A stretch of 64,000 nucleotides of DNA from a virus. Where the stretch lies: the IMG/VR virus record IMGVR_UViG_3300007513_002727, positions 28,943 through 92,942 of that record. One strand, 5' to 3'. Below the pieces are notes generated by a model, which made no database searches, was not told where the DNA came from, and worked only from the letters and a program-made list of their open reading frames with translations. Shown piece after piece: positions 19,755 through 50,446 of this stretch; position 1 is the first letter of the stretch, and each line of letters starts with the position of its first letter. The position numbers and the translations under genes are program-made.

Positions 19755-20345
19755 TTATTCCAACAGCTCGTGAATACCGTAATATAAGAAGTAAATTGCT
19801 AGGCCAGTAAATATCCAACGACTAGCTCTCCATATTTTAGCAACTGGAATTTTTCTAATTTGTTTTGATGCTACTAGGCCGACTATAAGCAAAGCACCCA
19901 ATCCAATCACAGCACCTAATCCAATACTCATTACAGATGTACCTGCGTACATTAATGCTGTAAGAAATGCTACAATTTCTGCGCCTTCTCTAAACACGGT
20001 AAGAAATACAATTAATGCCAATGCCAATATTGGTCCATTACTTTTTAAATTAGCCTGAATAATTTTTGTATGTTGTACTGCTCCATGACAGAACCATGCT
20101 GTCCAAAACAATAATCCAGAGGCGGCCAGTGCCGTCCATCCTTCTACTGCTTCAAAGTCGTTTGCAATGAACTGTTGAGCAAAGTATCCTAATATCACTG
20201 CACAAACAAGTGCTAATGCTGTTGATCCTAATATTGTTATTTTTTGTCTATAATTGGTTACCATTAGCCAAGCCATCTGTACTATTAGATATGCTTCTAA
20301 GCCTTCTCTAAACCAAATAAACGTAGGTGCTAATGTTCCTGTCAT
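19755..20345 (-). CDS. FTR1-family iron permease
   Basis: Two RExxE motifs (FREGLEA, FREGAEI) and about six transmembrane helices. Confidence 0.9.
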   Translation of the reverse strand: MTGTLAPTFIWFREGLEAYLIVQMAWLMVTNYRQKITILGSTALALVCAVILGYFAQQFIANDFEAVEGWTALAASGLLFWTAWFCHGAVQHTKIIQANLKSNGPILALALIVFLTVFREGAEIVAFLTALMYAGTSVMSIGLGAVIGLGALLIVGLVASKQIRKIPVAKIWRASRWIFTGLAIYFLYYGIHELLE

Positions 20346-20419: not shown

Positions 20420-20791
20420 TTATTTCAACTCTACAGTTCCGCCGGCTTCTTCTAACTGCTTTTTAAGTTTTTCAACTTCTTCTTTTTCAATATCTTCTTT
20501 AACTGGTTTTGGTAAATCCTCAACAAAATTCTTGGCTTCTATTAACCCTAATCCTAATATATCTTTAATTGCTTTTAATACTGGAATTTTTTTGTTCTCA
20601 CCAAATCCTGTTAGCATAACGGTTGCAGTTGCTTTCTCTTCTGCTGGTGCTGATGCTGATGCTTGGGCAGGTGCTGATTGTAAGTTATCTAGGTCTATGT
20701 TCCACTCTTTGGCTAGTTTTTTAGATAGGTCTAGTGCTTCTAGAACTGTAAGTTGCCCTAGTTCCTTCACTAATGTATCTATATTTGCCAT
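20420..20791 (-). CDS. rplL: Ribosomal protein bL12 (L7/L12)
   Basis: LTVLEALDLSKKL N-terminal domain, Ala-rich hinge, and KIPVLKAIK..LGLGLIEAK...LEEAGGTVELK. Confidence 0.93.
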   Translation of the reverse strand: MANIDTLVKELGQLTVLEALDLSKKLAKEWNIDLDNLQSAPAQASASAPAEEKATATVMLTGFGENKKIPVLKAIKDILGLGLIEAKNFVEDLPKPVKEDIEKEEVEKLKKQLEEAGGTVELK

Positions 20792-20800
20792 TATTTGTTA

Positions 20801-20935
20801 TTATTTTTTTCGTTTACCCATGTAATGCTCAGATGGTTCGTAGTTCCATCGTTTGCCATGATGTCCACGGATATCTGCATACCACATTCTAAGTCTTACT
20901 ATAAATTTTCGAATTGCTCTATTTCTGATTGTCAC
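20801..20935 (-). CDS. Small basic protein (44 aa; not in ORF track)
   Basis: GTG start abuts the upstream stop. MTIRNRAIRKFIVRLRMWYADIRGHHGKRWNYEPSEHYMGKRKK* fills the gap before rplL. Confidence 0.7.
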   Translation of the reverse strand: MTIRNRAIRKFIVRLRMWYADIRGHHGKRWNYEPSEHYMGKRKK

Positions 20936-21139
20936 TTATCTTCCTATCTTCTTTTTTCTACCAATTGGTAATTTTTGTTCTTTAACGAAAACCTCCCCTT
21001 TTTTCGTCTCCCACTCAATAGTTACCATCGGAGCCTTAGAAGATGCTTGAAACGACTTTAGAGCTTTCTTAAATGATGTTGCCTCAATTATTTTTTCTTC
21101 TGTTCCAGATATAATTTTAAATTCTCTCATTTTTGACAT
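20936..21139 (-). CDS. Small basic protein (67 aa)
   Basis: First gene of the minus-strand operon, behind TTGACA-17-TACATT. Confidence 0.65.
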   Translation of the reverse strand: MSKMREFKIISGTEEKIIEATSFKKALKSFQASSKAPMVTIEWETKKGEVFVKEQKLPIGRKKKIGR

Positions 21140-21147
21140 AATAATTT

Positions 21148-21191
21148 AATGTAACATAAGATTGACTTTTTGTCAACTGTATGCTTAAATA
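21148..21191. promoter_or_regulatory. Divergent promoter with palindromic -35 boxes (TTGACT-TTT-TGTCAA)
   Basis: Minus strand: TTGACA 21176-21171 and TGnTACATT. Plus strand: TTGACT 21162-21167 and TAAATA 21186-21191, just before tmRNA. Confidence 0.6.
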
Positions 21192-21196
21192 TTAAT

Positions 21197-21492
21197 AAGT
21201 TTGTTGACTAATAATTAATAAGCGGACAAGACGAGAGTTCGAATCTCTCCACCTCCACCAAATTTTGGTGGCTTATGTAATCCCTTTCGGGGGTGTTATT
21301 GGAAATCGATTGACGTCTAAACTTGTTACGAGAACTTGGACATGGTACTGACCTAACAGGCCGTTTTTAAATGCAAACAAAAGAGCATTAGGATTTGCTG
21401 ACTTTACAGTTGGTATGTCTGAATTGAGATTAGCGGCGTAATAACTGTTTAATTTCTGGGGTTTGGCCCACCTCGCAACAGAACGGGCCACT
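21197..21492 (+). ncRNA. ssrA: Circularly permuted (two-piece, alphaproteobacterial-type) tmRNA
   Basis: Acceptor piece: T-arm GAGAG-TTCGAAT-CTCTC and CACCTCC-A-CCA, ending at 21260. Coding piece starts GGGGGTG at 21289, giving the G3.U70 alanine identity pair. Tag 21373-21441 reads ANKRALGFADFTVGMSELRLAA*. 3' hairpin TGGCCC...GGGCCA. Confidence 0.95.
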
Positions 21493-21573
21493 TCATTTAA
21501 AACAACATATAACTTATACCGTCATATAATTGATGCAACTATTGATTTAAATAATTGCGTCAAGGGGGAGGGT

Positions 21574-41556: not shown

Positions 41557-42810
41557 ATGGGAGATGATAGTTTAGTCTGTTCCTTTTGCAGTAAATCTCG
41601 AAAAGACGTTACAAAAATGATTGTAGGTGCAACTAAAGTTGCTATCTGTAATGAGTGTGTAAAACTTTGTATTGAAATATTAGATGAAGACATAATTAAA
41701 TCCAAAGCAGAACAATTTGCTAAAGGTGATAAAGATATTCTTAACCCTGTTAATATTAAAGAATATTTAGATCAATATATTATAGGACAAGATGCCGCAA
41801 AAACTGTATTGTCAGTAGCAGTATCTAACCACTATAAAAGAATTACAAATCCACCTAAAGATTTTGAGTTAGATAAATCAAATGTATTATTATTAGGAGC
41901 CACTGGTGCAGGTAAAACACTTATGGCTAGAACAATAGCACAATATTTAGATGTACCTGTTGCTATTGCAGATGCAACAACATTAACCGAGTCTGGCTAC
42001 GTTGGTGAAGATGTAGAAAATGTAGTACAAAAATTATACGCAAATTCAAGTGGTGACATTCAAAAAACTGAACGTGGTATTATATTCATAGATGAAATAG
42101 ATAAGATTACACGTAAAAGTGAGAATACTTCTATAACAAGAGATGTATCTGGAGAAGGTGTACAACAAGGATTACTTAAAATTGTAGAAGGAACTGAATG
42201 CAGAATTATGCCACAGGGAGGCAGAAAACATCCTGACCAACAAATGGTTACTATTAATACTAAAAATATATTGTTTATAGTAGGTGGGGCATTTACAGAA
42301 TTAGAAAAACAAATACGAAACAGAAAATCAAGTGGTATTGGTTTTGGTTCTAAATTAAAAGACGATGATATAAAAAATTATCTTATTGACGTAAGACCCG
42401 AAGACTTAATAAAATATGGCCTAATTCCAGAATTTGTAGGAAGATTTTCAATGATTACTCATGTTGATGATTTAAGTGAATCACAATTAGTGCAAATACT
42501 TACAGAGCCTAAAAATGCTTTAATAAAACAAATGCAATATTTGTTTGGATTAGACGAGATTAAATTAGAATTTAGCAAAGATGCCAAACTATCTGTTGCT
42601 AAAAAAGCCAAAGCATTAGGTACAAATGCCCGAGGTTTGAAAAATATTGTAGATAGAGTATTATTACCATTCCAATTTGATGCCCATGAAATGAAAAATA
42701 AAGGTGTCATCACAATTAAAATAACAAGTGACGTGGTTGACAAAAATGCCGATCCAGTGTTACTATTTAAGAAGCAAGATGGAACAATACCAAAGAAACA
42801 ATCAGTTTAA
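41557..42810 (+). CDS. clpX: ATP-dependent Clp protease ATP-binding subunit ClpX
   Basis: Zn finger CSFC...CNEC, Walker A GATGAGKT, GYVG pore loop, Walker B IFIDEIDK, RKH loop and IGF loop. Confidence 0.96.
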   Translation: MGDDSLVCSFCSKSRKDVTKMIVGATKVAICNECVKLCIEILDEDIIKSKAEQFAKGDKDILNPVNIKEYLDQYIIGQDAAKTVLSVAVSNHYKRITNPPKDFELDKSNVLLLGATGAGKTLMARTIAQYLDVPVAIADATTLTESGYVGEDVENVVQKLYANSSGDIQKTERGIIFIDEIDKITRKSENTSITRDVSGEGVQQGLLKIVEGTECRIMPQGGRKHPDQQMVTINTKNILFIVGGAFTELEKQIRNRKSSGIGFGSKLKDDDIKNYLIDVRPEDLIKYGLIPEFVGRFSMITHVDDLSESQLVQILTEPKNALIKQMQYLFGLDEIKLEFSKDAKLSVAKKAKALGTNARGLKNIVDRVLLPFQFDAHEMKNKGVITIKITSDVVDKNADPVLLFKKQDGTIPKKQSV

Positions 42811-43111
42811 AAACTTTAGAAACTCTTGGAATAATAAACCCTCTAGAGGGCGGAAACCTAAACCACCAATGCCACCTGGCTGTAATTACTATGCGGAAGT
42901 ACGCGATGGTGATGATCCTATGCGAGCTTATCGTAGAATTAAAAAGAAAATTAAAGATGATAAGTTCTTTGAAGAAATTAAAGAACGACAATATTACCAA
43001 AAACCATCATTTAAAAAACGTGAAAAAGCAAAACGTAAAAAAATAGTTCTAAAAAAGCTACAACGAGAACGTGACGATAACCGTTTTATAGGTAAAACCA
43101 ATAGAAATTAA
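42779..43111 (+). CDS. rpsU: Ribosomal protein bS21 homolog with an N-terminal extension
   Basis: EVRDGDDPMRAYRRIKKKI...EIKERQYYQKPSFKKR. Start moved to ATG 42779. Confidence 0.85.
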   Translation: MEQYQRNNQFKNFRNSWNNKPSRGRKPKPPMPPGCNYYAEVRDGDDPMRAYRRIKKKIKDDKFFEEIKERQYYQKPSFKKREKAKRKKIVLKKLQRERDDNRFIGKTNRN

Positions 43112-43132
43112 TTTACCAAAAAGGTCGCAAGA

Positions 43133-43172
43133 TTGACATATAGTACATATATGTTATAATAAGAGATAAATA
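43133..43172 (+). promoter_or_regulatory. Tandem early (sigma70) and late promoters for hsp20
   Basis: TTGACA-16-TATAAT (43133-43160) and TAAATA (43167-43172). Confidence 0.7.
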
Positions 43173-43174
43173 AC

Positions 43175-43237
43175 GTTGAAGGTTGCTATAGATAGGACCT
43201 TTAATATTAACTCGCTAACTTAGGAGGAAAGCACATG
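43175..43237 (+). promoter_or_regulatory. ROSE-like RNA thermometer in the hsp20 5'UTR
   Basis: 5' hairpin TTGAAGGT/ACCTTTAA, then CTCGCT-AACTT-AGGAG, where U(U/C)GCU pairs with the SD leaving a bulged G. Confidence 0.7.
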
Positions 43238-43687
43238 AAAAACAATCTATCTATCTTTAATAACTTAAGACCCATAACAGTAGGGTTTGACAATATGTTT
43301 GATCATTTTGAACATATGTTAGACGACGGCGGTTTCTTTAGAAACGGTACTGTTAGTAACTTCCCACCTTACAATATTGAAAAGACTGGAAAAAATTCTT
43401 ATAATGTAGAACTTGCACTTGCAGGTTTTAATAAAAAGGATATAGAAGTTACATATGAGGATAACCTTTTATCAGTAAAATCTAAAAAAGAAGATACTAC
43501 TGAACAAACTGATGCCGATGGTAATATGATTCATAGAGGTATTTCAAAAAGATACTTCGCAAAATCATTTACTATTGCAAACGACGTTGAAATAAAAGGA
43601 GCTGAACTTAAAGATGGTTTACTTGTAATTGCTTTGGAACGAATACTTCCGGAGGCAAAAAAAGCAAAAACTATCGAAATAAAGTAA
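43235..43687 (+). CDS. hsp20: Small heat shock protein Hsp20 (IbpA-like)
   Basis: FPPYNI, ELALAGF, HRGISKRYF and AELKDGLL. Confidence 0.95.
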   Translation: MKNNLSIFNNLRPITVGFDNMFDHFEHMLDDGGFFRNGTVSNFPPYNIEKTGKNSYNVELALAGFNKKDIEVTYEDNLLSVKSKKEDTTEQTDADGNMIHRGISKRYFAKSFTIANDVEIKGAELKDGLLVIALERILPEAKKAKTIEIK

Positions 43688-43694
43688 GCAATAT

Positions 43695-43725
43695 GATAGG
43701 TAGGGTGGTAATCACCCTACTTGTC
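43695..43725 (+). terminator. Hairpin terminator after hsp20
   Basis: GATAGGTAGGGTG-GTAAT-CACCCTACTTGTC. Confidence 0.7.
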
Positions 43726-43771
43726 AATAGACAAATTTAAAAAATGTGTTATAATAAGGAGATAAAACATT

Positions 43772-45661
43772 ATGAGTAAAATTATAGGAATAGACTTAGG
43801 TACTACAAATTCATGCGTATCATTAATGGAAGGTACACAGGCAAAAGTATTAGAAAATGCAGAAGGCAAAAGAACAACACCTTCAATAGTAGCATTTGGA
43901 GATGAGAAATTAGTTGGAGAACCTGCTAAAAGACAAGCGGTTTCAAATCCAGCAAATACAATATTCGCGGCTAAAAGATTAATTGGAAGAAAATTTGATG
44001 GAGATTCTGTACAAAAAGATGTACAAACATCACCTTTTAAAATAGTAAAAGCAGATAATGGAGATGCTTGGATTGAAGCAAAAGGTAAAAAATATTCACC
44101 AGCACAGATCTCAGGTTTCGTTTTACAAAAAATGAAAGAAACTGCTGAAAAATATTTAGGACAAGAAGTTAAAAAAGCTGTAATAACAGTACCAGCATAC
44201 TTTAATGACTCACAAAGACAAGCAACAAAAGACGCAGGTAAAATTGCAGGACTTGAAGTTGAACGTATTGTAAACGAACCAACTGCGGCGGCACTTGCAT
44301 ATGGTTTAGATAAAAAGAAATCAGGCACAGTTGCAGTGTACGACCTAGGTGGTGGTACATTTGATATATCTATATTAGAAATAGGCGACGGAGTATTTGA
44401 AGTTAAATCTACAAATGGTGATACATCATTAGGTGGAGAAGATTTTGATAATGTTCTAGTTGATTATCTTTGTAGTGAATTTAAAAAAGATACTGGTATA
44501 GACATAAAAACAGACAATTTAGCACTTCAAAGAATTAAAGAAGCGGCAGAAAAAGCTAAATGTGAATTATCATCAGCATTACAAACAGATATTAATTTAC
44601 CATTTCTTACTGCTGATAAAACTGGACCAAAACACTTAAACATTAAACTTACAAGAGCAAAATTTGAATCATTAACAGAATCATTAATTAGAAAAACATT
44701 TGCTCCTTGTAAAACAGCATTAAAAGATTCAGGAATTAGTAAAGACAAAATAGATGAAGTTATCCTTGTAGGAGGTATGACTCGTATGCCAAAAGTATTA
44801 GAAACAGTTAAAAGTTTCTTTGGCAAAGAACCACACACAGGAGTTAATCCAGACGAAGTTGTAGCAATTGGAGCCGCAATACAGGGTGGAGTATTACAAG
44901 GTGACGTTAAAGATGTATTACTTTTAGATGTAACACCTTTATCACTTGGTATTGAAACACTTGGTGGTGTTGCTACTAAACTTATTGAAAAGAATACAAC
45001 AATACCTACAAAGAAAAGTCAAGTATTTTCAACTGCTGAAAACAATCAAGCGGCAGTTACAATTAGAGTTGTACAGGGTGAAAGAGAAATGGCTACTGAC
45101 AATAAACAACTTGGAAACTTTAACTTAGAAGGCATTCCACCAGCACCAAGAGGTGTACCTCAAATTGAAGTAACATTTGATATAGATGCAAATGGTATTG
45201 TAAATGTGTCTGCAAAAGATAAAGGCACAGGTAAAGAACAAAAAATTACAATACAAGCATCAGGTGGATTAAGTGAAGCCGATATTGAAAAAATGGTTAA
45301 AGATGCTGAAGCAAACAAAGAAGCAGACAAAAAGAAAAGAGAAGAGGTTGATGCTAGAAATCATGCTGACACACTTGCTGACTCTACAGAAAAATCACTT
45401 AAAGAACACGGTGACAAAGTTTCTGTAGAAGATAAAACAAAAATAGAAACTAGCCTAGCTGATTTAAAAGAAGCACTTAAAGGTAATGACGTTGAATCTA
45501 TAAAAAGTAAAACAGGTGCCCTTACCGAAGCATCAATGAAACTAGGTGAAGCAATCTATAAAACTCAACAAGAACAAGCAAAACCAGAAGCAACTGAGAG
45601 TACATCAGGCGGTGAAAAAGAAGACGTTGTTGATGCAGATTTTGAAGAAGTTAAAAAATAA
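43772..45661 (+). CDS. dnaK: Chaperone DnaK (Hsp70)
   Basis: [24 protein letters not shown] and LVGGMTRMP; C-terminal VVDADFEEV. Promoter TAGACA...TGTTATAAT and SD AGGAG. Confidence 0.98.
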
Positions 45662-48816: not shown

Positions 48817-49023
48817 ATGATAAAAGAAGCACTTATAAAAAAACTAGAAGGCGATATTGCTAAAATAGAAGCTAACATTGTAACTTACCTAAGCAATCCT
48901 ATTTCTGTAGTAGCAGATCATATTGATTATATTACTCCTATTGAAAAGGAATTAGAAAAGTTATCTGCGGCGAAAGGTAAATTAGTATCTTTAAAAAATA
49001 TTAAATTTAAGTTAGATGAATGA
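48817..49023 (+). CDS. Small coiled-coil hypothetical protein
   Basis: [17 protein letters not shown]...YL.NP...H; first gene of the suf operon. Confidence 0.65.
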
Positions 49024-50446
49024 TGTACTTCAAGACCGACTTAACAAAAAATATGATGCTGGGTTTACAACAAACGTTGAATCAGTAACATTACCTCCAG
49101 GCCTTAACGAAGACATAGTAACACAAATCTCAAAAATTAAAAAAGAACCTAAATGGTTGCTTGAATTTAGATTAAAAGCATACCAACGATGGAAAATTTT
49201 AAAACAGCCTGATTGGGCAAATCTTAATATTAAACCTATAGACTATCAAGCAATATCATATTACTCAGCACCAAAGCCAGGTCCTAAATCATATGATGAT
49301 GTAGATCCTGAAATTAAAAAAGACTTTGAAAAGTTAGGCATACCATTAGCAGAAAGAGCCGCACTAGCAGGTGTAGCCGTTGATGCAGTATTTGATTCTG
49401 TATCTATTGCAACTACATTCAAAGATAAGTTAGCAGAACTAGGAATTATATTTTGTTCATTCTCAGAAGCAGTACAAAAACATCCTGATCTAGTAAAAAA
49501 ATATATGGGCTCTGTTATTCCAATTACAGACAATTATTTTGCAACATTAAATTCTGCTGTCTTTACAGATGGAACTTTTGTTTATGTTCCTAAAGGAGTA
49601 AGATGTCCTATGGAACTATCTACATACTTTAGAATCAATGCGGCTAACACAGGACAATTTGAACGGACTTTAATTATAGCTGACGAAGGAAGTTATGTAA
49701 GTTATTTAGAAGGCTGTACTGCACCAATAAGAAAAGAAAGTCAATTACACGCCGCCAACGTAGAACTTGTAGCATTAGATGATGCAGAAATAAAATATTC
49801 AACAGTACAAAATTGGTACCCAGGAGATAAAGATGGCAAAGGCGGCATATACAATTTTGTAACTAAACGTGGAAAATGTAAAGGAACAAACTCAAAAATT
49901 TCTTGGACACAAGTAGAAACAGGATCAGCTATTACTTGGAAGTATCCAAGTTGTATATTACAAGGAGATAATTCTACTGGTGAATTTTATTCTGTTGCTG
50001 TAACAAACAATTATCAACAAGCAGATACAGGTACTAAAATGATACACCTAGGCAAAAATACAAAATCAACTATTGTATCTAAAGGAATTTCGTTAGGACA
50101 CTCATCAAATACATATAGAGGTTTAGTAAAAATTAATAAAAATGCTGACAATTCAAAAAACTTTACTCAATGCGATTCATTAATGCTAGGTAATAATTGT
50201 TCTGCTAGAACTATACCATATATTGAAAATAAAAATGTATCTAGTAATTGCAGTCACGAAGCAACTACATCCAAAATTAATGATGAACAATTATTTTATG
50301 CAAGGCAACGTGGACTAGACGAAGAAAATGCTACTAATTTAATTGTAGCAGGATTCTGTAAACAAGTATTTCAAAACTTACCTATGGAGTTTGCAGTAGA
50401 AGCCAATAAACTATTAGAAGTTAGTATGGAAGGAGCAGTTGGATAA
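49016..50446 (+). CDS. sufB: Fe-S cluster assembly protein SufB
   Basis: [36 protein letters not shown] and MEFAVEA. Confidence 0.97.

Follow-up and report, generated by a model that had tools for sequence, protein, structure and literature searches.

A circularly permuted, alpha-type tmRNA with a predicted 22-residue tag in a very large uncultured marine phage

The IMG/VR record IMGVR_UViG_3300007513_002727 carries, at positions 21197-21492 (plus strand) of the 64,000-nucleotide stretch analysed here (the window, which is the final 64 kb of the 92,942-base record), what is very probably a functional, circularly permuted, two-piece transfer-messenger RNA (tmRNA; gene ssrA) of the alphaproteobacterial type, borne by a very large uncultured marine phage. 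We hold the same high confidence in the explanation as a whole, including the mechanism proposed below. The tag encoded by this gene is ANKRALGFADFTVGMSELRLAA, and the gene belongs to a family defined by a bipartite tag of 22-25 residues, a conserved masking spacer and linkage to the gene for ribosomal protein bL12 in very large marine phages. We found no earlier description of this family in the literature. The locus had been singled out in a preliminary description made from the nucleotide sequence, whose claims are taken up with the results that bear on them.

Identity and architecture of the tmRNA gene

ARAGORN reports a single permuted tmRNA in the window (21165-21532, plus strand). Two Rfam models match the same locus: tmRNA_permuted (RF04321) over 21197-21441 with 80.8 bits against a gathering threshold of 47 (E 7e-14), and alpha_tmRNA (RF01849) over 21141-21492 with 59.2 bits against a gathering threshold of 50 (E 9e-14), both matches being full length (model positions 1-355 for RF01849). 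ARAGORN and the Rfam alpha_tmRNA model were what the preliminary description had proposed as a check on its call of a permuted, alpha-type, phage-borne tmRNA, and both were positive. The permutation is evident on reading the sequence: the acceptor (3') piece lies upstream and is followed by the spacer and then by the coding (5') piece (Table 1). The boundaries first given for this order, namely a CCA end at 21260, a 28-nucleotide spacer and a GGGGGTG start at 21289, are exact. The tRNA-like domain possesses a T arm and a 7-bp acceptor stem, GGGGGUG/CACCUCC, followed by ACCA. The G3.U70 pair, also part of the original call, can be read from the two strands of this stem, where U70 stands opposite G3.

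The fold was examined with RNAalifold on 37 distinct relatives (alignment A2). Double-sided compensatory changes are seen in 23 of the 37 predicted pairs, distributed over three segments of P2, the T arm and the acceptor stem. For the last of these the alignment has GGGGGUG/CACCUCC, GGGGCUG/CAGCUCC, GGGGCCA/UGGCUCC and GGGGGCG/CGCCUCC, with G3.U70 kept throughout, and in P2 the pair 61/206 is GC in 17, AU in 14 and GU in six of the relatives. For the outer P2 helix, the 5' strand that had been named at the outset, AAGTTT (21197-21202), stands. Its proposed partner, AAACTT at 21319-21324, does not, and is replaced on covariation by GAACTT at 21332-21337. The coding piece ends in a hairpin (GGCCC/GGGCC, 21465-21489) with a conserved loop, ACCUnGCAACAGAA, that bacterial alpha tmRNAs share. 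By eye, its stem changes on both strands in A2 with complementarity kept, as GGCCC/GGGCC, GCAAC/GUUGC and GGCCCC/GGGGC.

The same alignment contains two types of T loop (GUUCGAAUC-like and GGGCAGUACC-like; columns 97-113) among tmRNAs with one common tag, as well as two or three variants of the region of pseudoknot 1 (columns 200-235), which combine variously with the T-loop types. Such mixed combinations under the same tag suggest recombination between phage tmRNA genes.

A tag of 22 residues under peptide-level selection

For the window copy, ARAGORN prints the tag as GMSELRLAA, and its output for two relatives (L064 and L072) is of the same short type. If this were right, translation would resume at GGU 21412 and the tag would be of ordinary length, a reading that we consider extremely unlikely. 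For most relatives, about 25 of them near-identical, the same program prints a full tag of 22-25 residues. Both Rfam models align the consensus resume sequence UAAAUGCaAAC onto 21368-21378 with high posterior probability and so place the resume codon at 21373. The sequence preceding this GCA is UUUUUAAAU, with U at -5 and A at -4, the latter being the equivalent of E. coli A86, the chief frame-setting base (PMC2481249). The motif (U/C)AAA(U/C) stands directly 5' of the resume codon in every family member whose tag was read; for most of them a stricter AAATGC pattern was used, and a looser one was needed for a few.

The comparison of relatives speaks most directly to the frame. A census of tags in IMG/VR yielded 38 distinct long-tag sequences, 32 with 22-residue and six with 25-residue tags, all in one frame, and the sole length change within it in A2 is a 9-nucleotide indel in the linker; that is, indels come in threes. 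Across 26 distinct 22-codon frames, there are seven variable columns at the first codon position, four at the second and 15 at the third, and 56% of the single-base codon differences are synonymous, as against 24% expected under random change. Upstream of GMSELRLAA, codons 5-13 (ALGFADLTV) differ almost solely by synonymous changes (GGA/GGG/GGT/GGC, TTT/TTC, GCT/GCC, GAC/GAT, CTA/TTA, ACA/ACG/ACC and GTT/GTC). This codon-level conservation across the frame indicates that the whole 22-residue frame is under peptide-level selection. Hence, ANKRALGFADFTVGMSELRLAA is the true reading of the window copy, and the short tag, ruled out by the conservation upstream of it, is a mis-call by ARAGORN. The 22-residue frame of the preliminary description is thus upheld by the Rfam resume alignment, the frame of the relatives and the synonymous pattern, and the alternative that it had itself named, a downstream resume codon giving a tag of normal length, was tested and is excluded by the codon-level conservation.

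The frame has the expected parts of a tmRNA tag: an alanine resume codon after the U-A context, a hydrophobic LAA end encoded as ...GCG GCG TAA TAA, and an in-frame stop. Its layout in the family is a conserved N-terminal block (N-block), A-N-x-(K/R)-A-L-(G/R)-F-A-D-(L/F/V), then a variable linker and a conserved (E/A/K)-(L/M)-R-L-A-A end. The linkers, such as TVGMS, VAMPTSRS, TLLLPSKT and TFMLPGKT, differ in both sequence and length, and all 38 long tags terminate in RLAA. The tag was rightly described as long, its 22 residues comparing with a most frequent length of 10 in the tag database (PMC11915505) and with the 24 of 24 ANDN-type tags called in the bacterial order discussed below; its start is likewise ANK(K/R) rather than ANDN. 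Longer tags are known from Mollicutes (PMC9382460), and there is precedent for tags exceeding 20 residues. Nor is the long tag peculiar to the phage of the window: at least 38 distinct sequences in IMG/VR form a family with the same frame, so that the tag is long yet not unique to this phage.

Table 1. Positions of the tmRNA gene, its parts and associated features in the window
Feature	Position	Strand	Description
Acceptor piece	21197..21260	+	5' strands of the P2 helices, T arm GAGAG-UUCGAAU-CUCUC, 3' acceptor strand CACCUCC, discriminator A, encoded CCA (21258-21260); from Rfam alignments and covariation
Intervening segment	21261..21288	+	28 nucleotides; predicted to be removed on maturation
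Coding piece	21289..21492	+	GGGGGUG with G3, 3' strands of P2, pseudoknot-1 region, tag frame, terminal hairpin; RF01849 full length
Tag frame	21373..21444	+	resume codon GCA (21373-21375); 22 codons (21373-21438) giving ANKRALGFADFTVGMSELRLAA; TAA TAA (21439-21444)
Putative sigma-70-type promoter of the tmRNA gene	21162..21190	+	-35 TTGACT (21162-21167), 17-nucleotide spacer, TG-extended -10 TGCTTAAAT (21182-21190)
Ribosomal protein bL12 (L7/L12)	20420..20791	-	Pfam PF00542 (3.6e-25) and PF16320; divergent from the tmRNA gene
Phage ClpX	41557..42810	+	Pfam zf-C4_ClpX and AAA_2

A family-specific spacer that could mask the acceptor strands

The segment between the two pieces contains a near-invariant block, GGTGGCTTATGTAATCCCTTTC (also given as GGTGGCTTATGTAATCCCTTYC), present in five of the five sequences found through a neighbouring protein. 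In about 10 further sequences, which were found by way of the tag alone, the block departs from this form by 1-2 nucleotides. Its TTGGTGG can pair with the CCACCAA end of the acceptor piece, across loops of varying length and sequence, and its AUCCCU with the GGGGGU at the 5' end of the coding piece. Folded alone, the segment from the window forms exactly these two hairpins (-14.8 kcal/mol; z -1.9, a modest value). Both pairing partners are invariant, so covariation is unable to prove the pairing. The CCACCA/TGGTGG hairpin of the preliminary description is accordingly present and conserved in the family. Spacers of the family measure 28-37 nucleotides, whereas those of bacterial alpha tmRNAs in the one order sampled are 3-16 nucleotides long, A/U-rich and devoid of GGTGG. 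As the hairpin is a conserved trait of the family and the sampled bacterial spacers lack GGTGG, the earlier suggestion that it could gate processing appears reasonable: the spacer is family-specific and, judging from its complementarity, could mask both acceptor strands, with a putative role in maturation.

Two variants deserve mention. In one record (L056:1633-1880) the spacer block runs without a break into tag codon 11 (…CCCTT|GACTTAACAGTT…), so that there is neither a 5' acceptor strand nor P2 nor a resume codon; this copy is either a deleted, dead gene or an assembly artefact. In a bL12-linked relative (L025:7615-7930), whose tmRNA is missed by ARAGORN and has the tag ANESYALAA, a shorter spacer ends in GCTTATG just before GGGGATG, which indicates that the CTTATG motif also occurs outside the long-tag family.

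Distribution in phages and bacteria

Relatives were collected through the neighbouring protein gene, and about 45 more through DNA patterns; an exact T-arm/acceptor pattern, which was too specific, had no matches in IMG/VR. BLASTN of long-tag and short-tag members against GenBank phages (50,697 records) recovered only tRNA-like stretches; the long tag is in no cultured phage. The family is diverse, with a mean column identity of 60% across A2, and the tag is nonetheless kept, which implies that it is old in phages. There are also sister phage tmRNAs with the same spacer block and short tags of 9-15 residues (ADEYAYEEELALAA, ADESYAHEELALAA, DNESFIFEEELALAA and ADENLALAA), and other bL12-carrying relatives have the tags ANESYALAA or AVNEDFALAA.

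Among 185,579 species genomes, the spacer block occurs on three contigs. Two of these, from a Bacillota metagenome-assembled genome (MAG) and a Rhodospirillaceae MAG, lack a tmRNA at the site and are chance matches. The third, of 46.7 kb, belongs to the MAG 'Rickettsiales bacterium MED657' (G001) and is listed as viral in IMG/VR too. This MAG has three permuted tmRNAs (L093, L094 and L092): two of the phage type, with 25- and 22-residue tags and on separate contigs, and a canonical alpha tmRNA of its own, which scores 185 bits and has the tag ANDNEMALAA. The phage-type copies point to phage contigs that share a bin with a possible host, or else to contamination of the bin. In the order to which MED657 belongs (42 genomes of 0.8-2.0 Mb), all 24 called tags are of 9-10 residues and begin with ANDN; 19 are ANDNEMALAA, and the others are ANDNEMVLAA, ANDNKMALAA, ANDNTMALAA and ANDNMALAA. 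A degenerate ALGFAD-x-T pattern, sought in 401 genomes drawn evenly from Alphaproteobacteria, matched the two phage-like contigs of this MAG and two further sites (in G109 and G372) that are chance matches. The long tag is thus absent from the other 400 genomes, which are a sample of the class.

These distributions bear on the possibility that the gene was simply captured from an unsampled marine alphaproteobacterial host with the same long tag and has no phage-specific role. The RNA is clearly of the alpha type, so its ultimate origin lies in Alphaproteobacteria; moreover, the tag motif was sought in the 401 members of the class, and the scan across all species used the spacer rather than the tag. 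Against such a capture, the tag occurs in no sampled bacterium and the conserved spacer is absent from bacterial genes. The short-tag sisters with the same spacer suggest that the extension arose within the phage lineage, and the tag persists across a family as diverse as that in A2. We therefore regard capture of a long-tagged host gene as quite unlikely. Host tmRNAs with the same long tag were what the preliminary description had named as evidence for capture, and none was found among the sampled bacterial tmRNAs.

Promoter, bL12 linkage and the carrier phage

The tmRNA gene is preceded by a putative sigma-70-type promoter, whose predicted start near 21197 coincides with the first base of the outer P2 helix. 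Its plus-strand -10 element fails the rule of the promoter scan (A at position 2), so the prediction draws on conservation: TTGACA, 17 nucleotides and TAAAT or TATAAT are kept in alignments A1 and A2. The -35 element falls within a palindrome, TTGACTTTTTGTCAA, the other half of which is the -35 of the divergent rplL promoter, a minus-strand TTGACA-17-TACATT found by the promoter scan and facing the bL12 operon. The palindrome is unique in the window and is not kept in all relatives. We considered whether TTGAC-N5-GTCAA is an operator and rejected this, since it is not conserved in all relatives and is better read as two back-to-back -35 boxes. The linkage of bL12 and tmRNA recurs in four diverged IMG/VR loci, with the tmRNA about 400 nucleotides upstream of the bL12 gene. 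In the small minus-strand operon of the window (20420-21176), bL12 is preceded by an open reading frame of 67 amino acids (20936-21139) and followed by a gene for an FTR1-like permease (19755-20345).

The 92,942-base record is rated 39% complete, and for related records with a tmRNA, which measure 64-172 kb, the rating is 17-47%; sizes of this order at such low completeness point to genomes of several hundred kb. The phage-type content includes ribonucleotide reductase, an ATP-dependent ligase, an exonuclease, methyltransferases, a tail-spike-like protein and many genes without known relatives, and nearly all genes lie on one strand. Interspersed are single cellular-type genes outside their usual operons (bL12, ClpX, DnaK, SufB, a PurF-like enzyme and a TonB-plug protein). 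Such a set of genes agrees with the non-structural region of a very large phage. The phage assignment draws on the IMG/VR classification, the PHROG content and the T4-type Gp23 capsid gene of one bL12-sharing record. We rejected the idea of a provirus flank, with a host ssrA at an integration site, as the gene is in the middle of the record, with phage-like genes around it, and diverged records show the same bL12-tmRNA synteny. The closest cultured relatives of the encoded ClpX are those of the jumbo phages Phosso of Sinorhizobium (52% identity) and Atu_ph07 of Agrobacterium (49%); the SAR11 host named at first is an assumption.

In the region from 41557 to 45661 together with 49016-50446, an intact ClpX lies near a full-length DnaK/Hsp70 (Pfam E 1e-273). 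Further on, the window encodes a SufB/D protein, a TonB-plug protein, a radical SAM enzyme of the B12-binding type and a PurF-like amidotransferase. Cell-like genes are thus unusually prominent for a viral contig, and this may account for the 'provirus' label given by IMG/VR.

ClpX and the proposed mechanism

The phage ClpX is full length. In an alignment to E. coli ClpX (8e91, E 1e-126), the Zn finger, the GYVG pore loop, the RKH loop and the IGF loop are all kept. A degron of the ClpX-directed ssrA kind is a C-terminal L-A-A with a free carboxylate, which the pore and RKH loops read; with both these loops and the L-A-A terminus of the tag retained, recognition of the tag by the enzyme can be predicted. 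The gene is present in five of the five other long-tag records and also in three of the five short-tag records of the same tmRNA lineage. A link between the long tag and the presence of ClpX was accordingly rejected as unspecific, and the earlier proposal that the tag is tuned to the phage's own ClpX finds no specific support in these counts; its companion idea, that the tag bypasses host adaptors, is conjecture.

In E. coli, the tag combines an SspB site with a ClpX site, and increased spacing between them (DAS+4) improves adaptor-dependent delivery (PMC9382460). By analogy, the conserved N-block, the linker and the LRLAA end suggest an adaptor site plus a ClpX degron. We accordingly envisage the following course of events. 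The gene would be transcribed from the sigma-70-type promoter, predicted to be an early one, back to back with the promoter of the phage bL12 operon. Before cutting, the spacer could mask both acceptor strands; RNase P would then act on the precursor, which would be cut at the encoded CCA and at G1, freeing the 28-nucleotide spacer. The two pieces would be held together by P2 and the acceptor stem and charged with alanine by the host alanyl-tRNA synthetase via G3.U70. Host SmpB would bring the phage tmRNA to stalled ribosomes, where translation would resume at GCA 21373 and append ANKRALGFADFTVGMSELRLAA. The C-terminal LAA would most likely hand the tagged fragments to ClpX, probably the phage's own, and, as no clpP gene was found, this ClpX would dock on host ClpP. 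The N-block would most likely be bound by a further protein, an adaptor of the kind of SspB. In sum, ribosomes would continue to be recycled during infection and truncated proteins would be removed.

Several observations weigh against this interpretation. The window copy scores modestly on the alpha model, with 59 bits against about 108 for two scored relatives and about 200 for bacteria, and in the Rfam alignment one of its inner P2 pairs is non-canonical. For pseudoknot 1, between P2 and the tag, there are by-eye candidates (loop AUGG/CCGU in the window and UUGG/CCAG in L002), and the MAFFT alignment is out of register there. None of the tmRNA-bearing fragments has a gene for the capsid protein (Gp23) or terminase. 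No SmpB, ClpP or SspB (PF04386) was found in the 93-kb record at its 39% completeness, and about 450 kb of related records, themselves fragments at 17-47% completeness, yielded neither SmpB nor ClpP; since the records are fragmentary, dependence on host factors is assumed. No candidate adaptor for the N-block, of the SspB type or otherwise, emerged from the 93-kb record. The occurrence of ClpX with short tags means that ClpX alone fails to explain the long one. Finally, two-piece processing, alanine charging, SmpB dependence and tagging activity are in this phage tmRNA predictions from sequence.

Other roles for the extension were weighed against this body of evidence. It may switch or widen the choice of protease or the fate of the product, the ALGFADLTV core serving as an element for Lon, FtsH or DnaK. 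The long tags of Mollicutes (Mycoplasma) are read by Lon rather than by ClpXP (PMC9382460), the hydrophobic/aromatic core is conserved at the peptide level, and the phage encodes a DnaK. Nevertheless, all members keep a ClpX-type LAA end and an intact ClpX is co-encoded, so that we judge this purely inferential idea to be unlikely. Rather than tagging productively, the phage RNA might serve as a decoy, vying with the host tmRNA for SmpB or ribosomes and so blocking host rescue. A mycobacteriophage tmRNA devoid of a coding sequence inhibits the endogenous tmRNA (cited in PMC11915505), and the failure to find a phage smpB in the 93-kb record or the approximately 450 kb of related fragments would agree with such a role. 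However, the tag frame, its resume context and its stops are intact and the peptide is under selection, all of which a decoy would not need, and we consider this role very unlikely.

A bolder version of the proposed mechanism would be an orthogonal degradation code, in which the phage ClpX and an adaptor, either phage-encoded or re-purposed, jointly read the N-block, the products are handled unlike those given the 10-residue ANDNEMALAA-type tag of the host, and the masking spacer ties maturation to a particular processing step that serves as a timing gate. We offer this as speculation and think it improbable in this full form.

Relationship to known systems

Among the closest known systems is the alphaproteobacterial two-piece tmRNA (RF01849, Caulobacter-type ssrA), with which the phage gene shares the permuted order, the G3.U70 acceptor stem, the encoded CCA, the P2 helices, the UAAAU|GCA resume site, the AN start and LAA end of the tag, and the terminal hairpin with a GCAACAGAA loop. 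The differences lie in the tag and the spacer. The phage tags have 22-25 residues with a basic/hydrophobic N-block, as opposed to 9-10 residues and ANDN in the 24 sampled bacterial genes, and the spacer of 28-37 nucleotides with two potential masking hairpins takes the place of a bacterial A/U-rich loop of 3-16 nucleotides. On RF01849 the phage family scores 59-108 bits and bacteria about 200.

Alpha-type permuted ssrA genes are also carried by cultured marine myophages and related sequences (Methylophilales phage Melnitz, Pelagibacter phage Mosig and pelagimyophage contigs; PMC9004378). These are phages of streamlined marine bacteria in which the gene has an early promoter; their tags are not discussed in that report. 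The long-tag phages differ in that they have no detectable nucleotide similarity to GenBank phage records and that their genomes are estimated to be much larger. The Rfam search showed neither a glutamine riboswitch nor any further family at the tmRNA locus of the window. The Sinorhizobium jumbo phage Phosso (PV764938) resembles the long-tag phages: it is a jumbo phage of an alphaproteobacterium, its permuted tmRNA is of the alpha type (113 bits), and its ClpX is the nearest one from a cultured phage. Its tag differs, ANDNVSTKVALAA having 13 residues and the canonical ANDN start, as does its spacer of about 430 nucleotides without the GGTGGCTTATGTAATCCC block. The Phosso tmRNA lies at L173:1501-2103 (about 349.6-350.2 kb of PV764938) and is missed by ARAGORN. 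With the ssrA tag of E. coli and with the long tags of Mollicutes the phage tags share the logic of an upstream recognition block plus a C-terminal degron whose spacing matters (PMC9382460), but the phage N-block has no sequence similarity to either.

Implications

Phage-borne tmRNAs are known, and in huge phages tmRNAs have been counted among the genes for translation (PMC7162821). For annotation, the present case indicates that ARAGORN prints a wrong tag for some copies and overlooks some phage tmRNAs entirely, as in Phosso. The family-specific spacer offers a handle on the processing of two-piece tmRNA precursors. The same kind of phage presents a series of at least 38 distinct long-tag sequences alongside short-tag sisters, and the long tags have a two-block conservation unlike that of the sampled bacterial tags. 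This series makes it testable whether ribosome-rescue proteolysis is re-routed through the phage's own set of degron, adaptor and ClpX, or whether the phage tmRNA instead tops up the system of the host.

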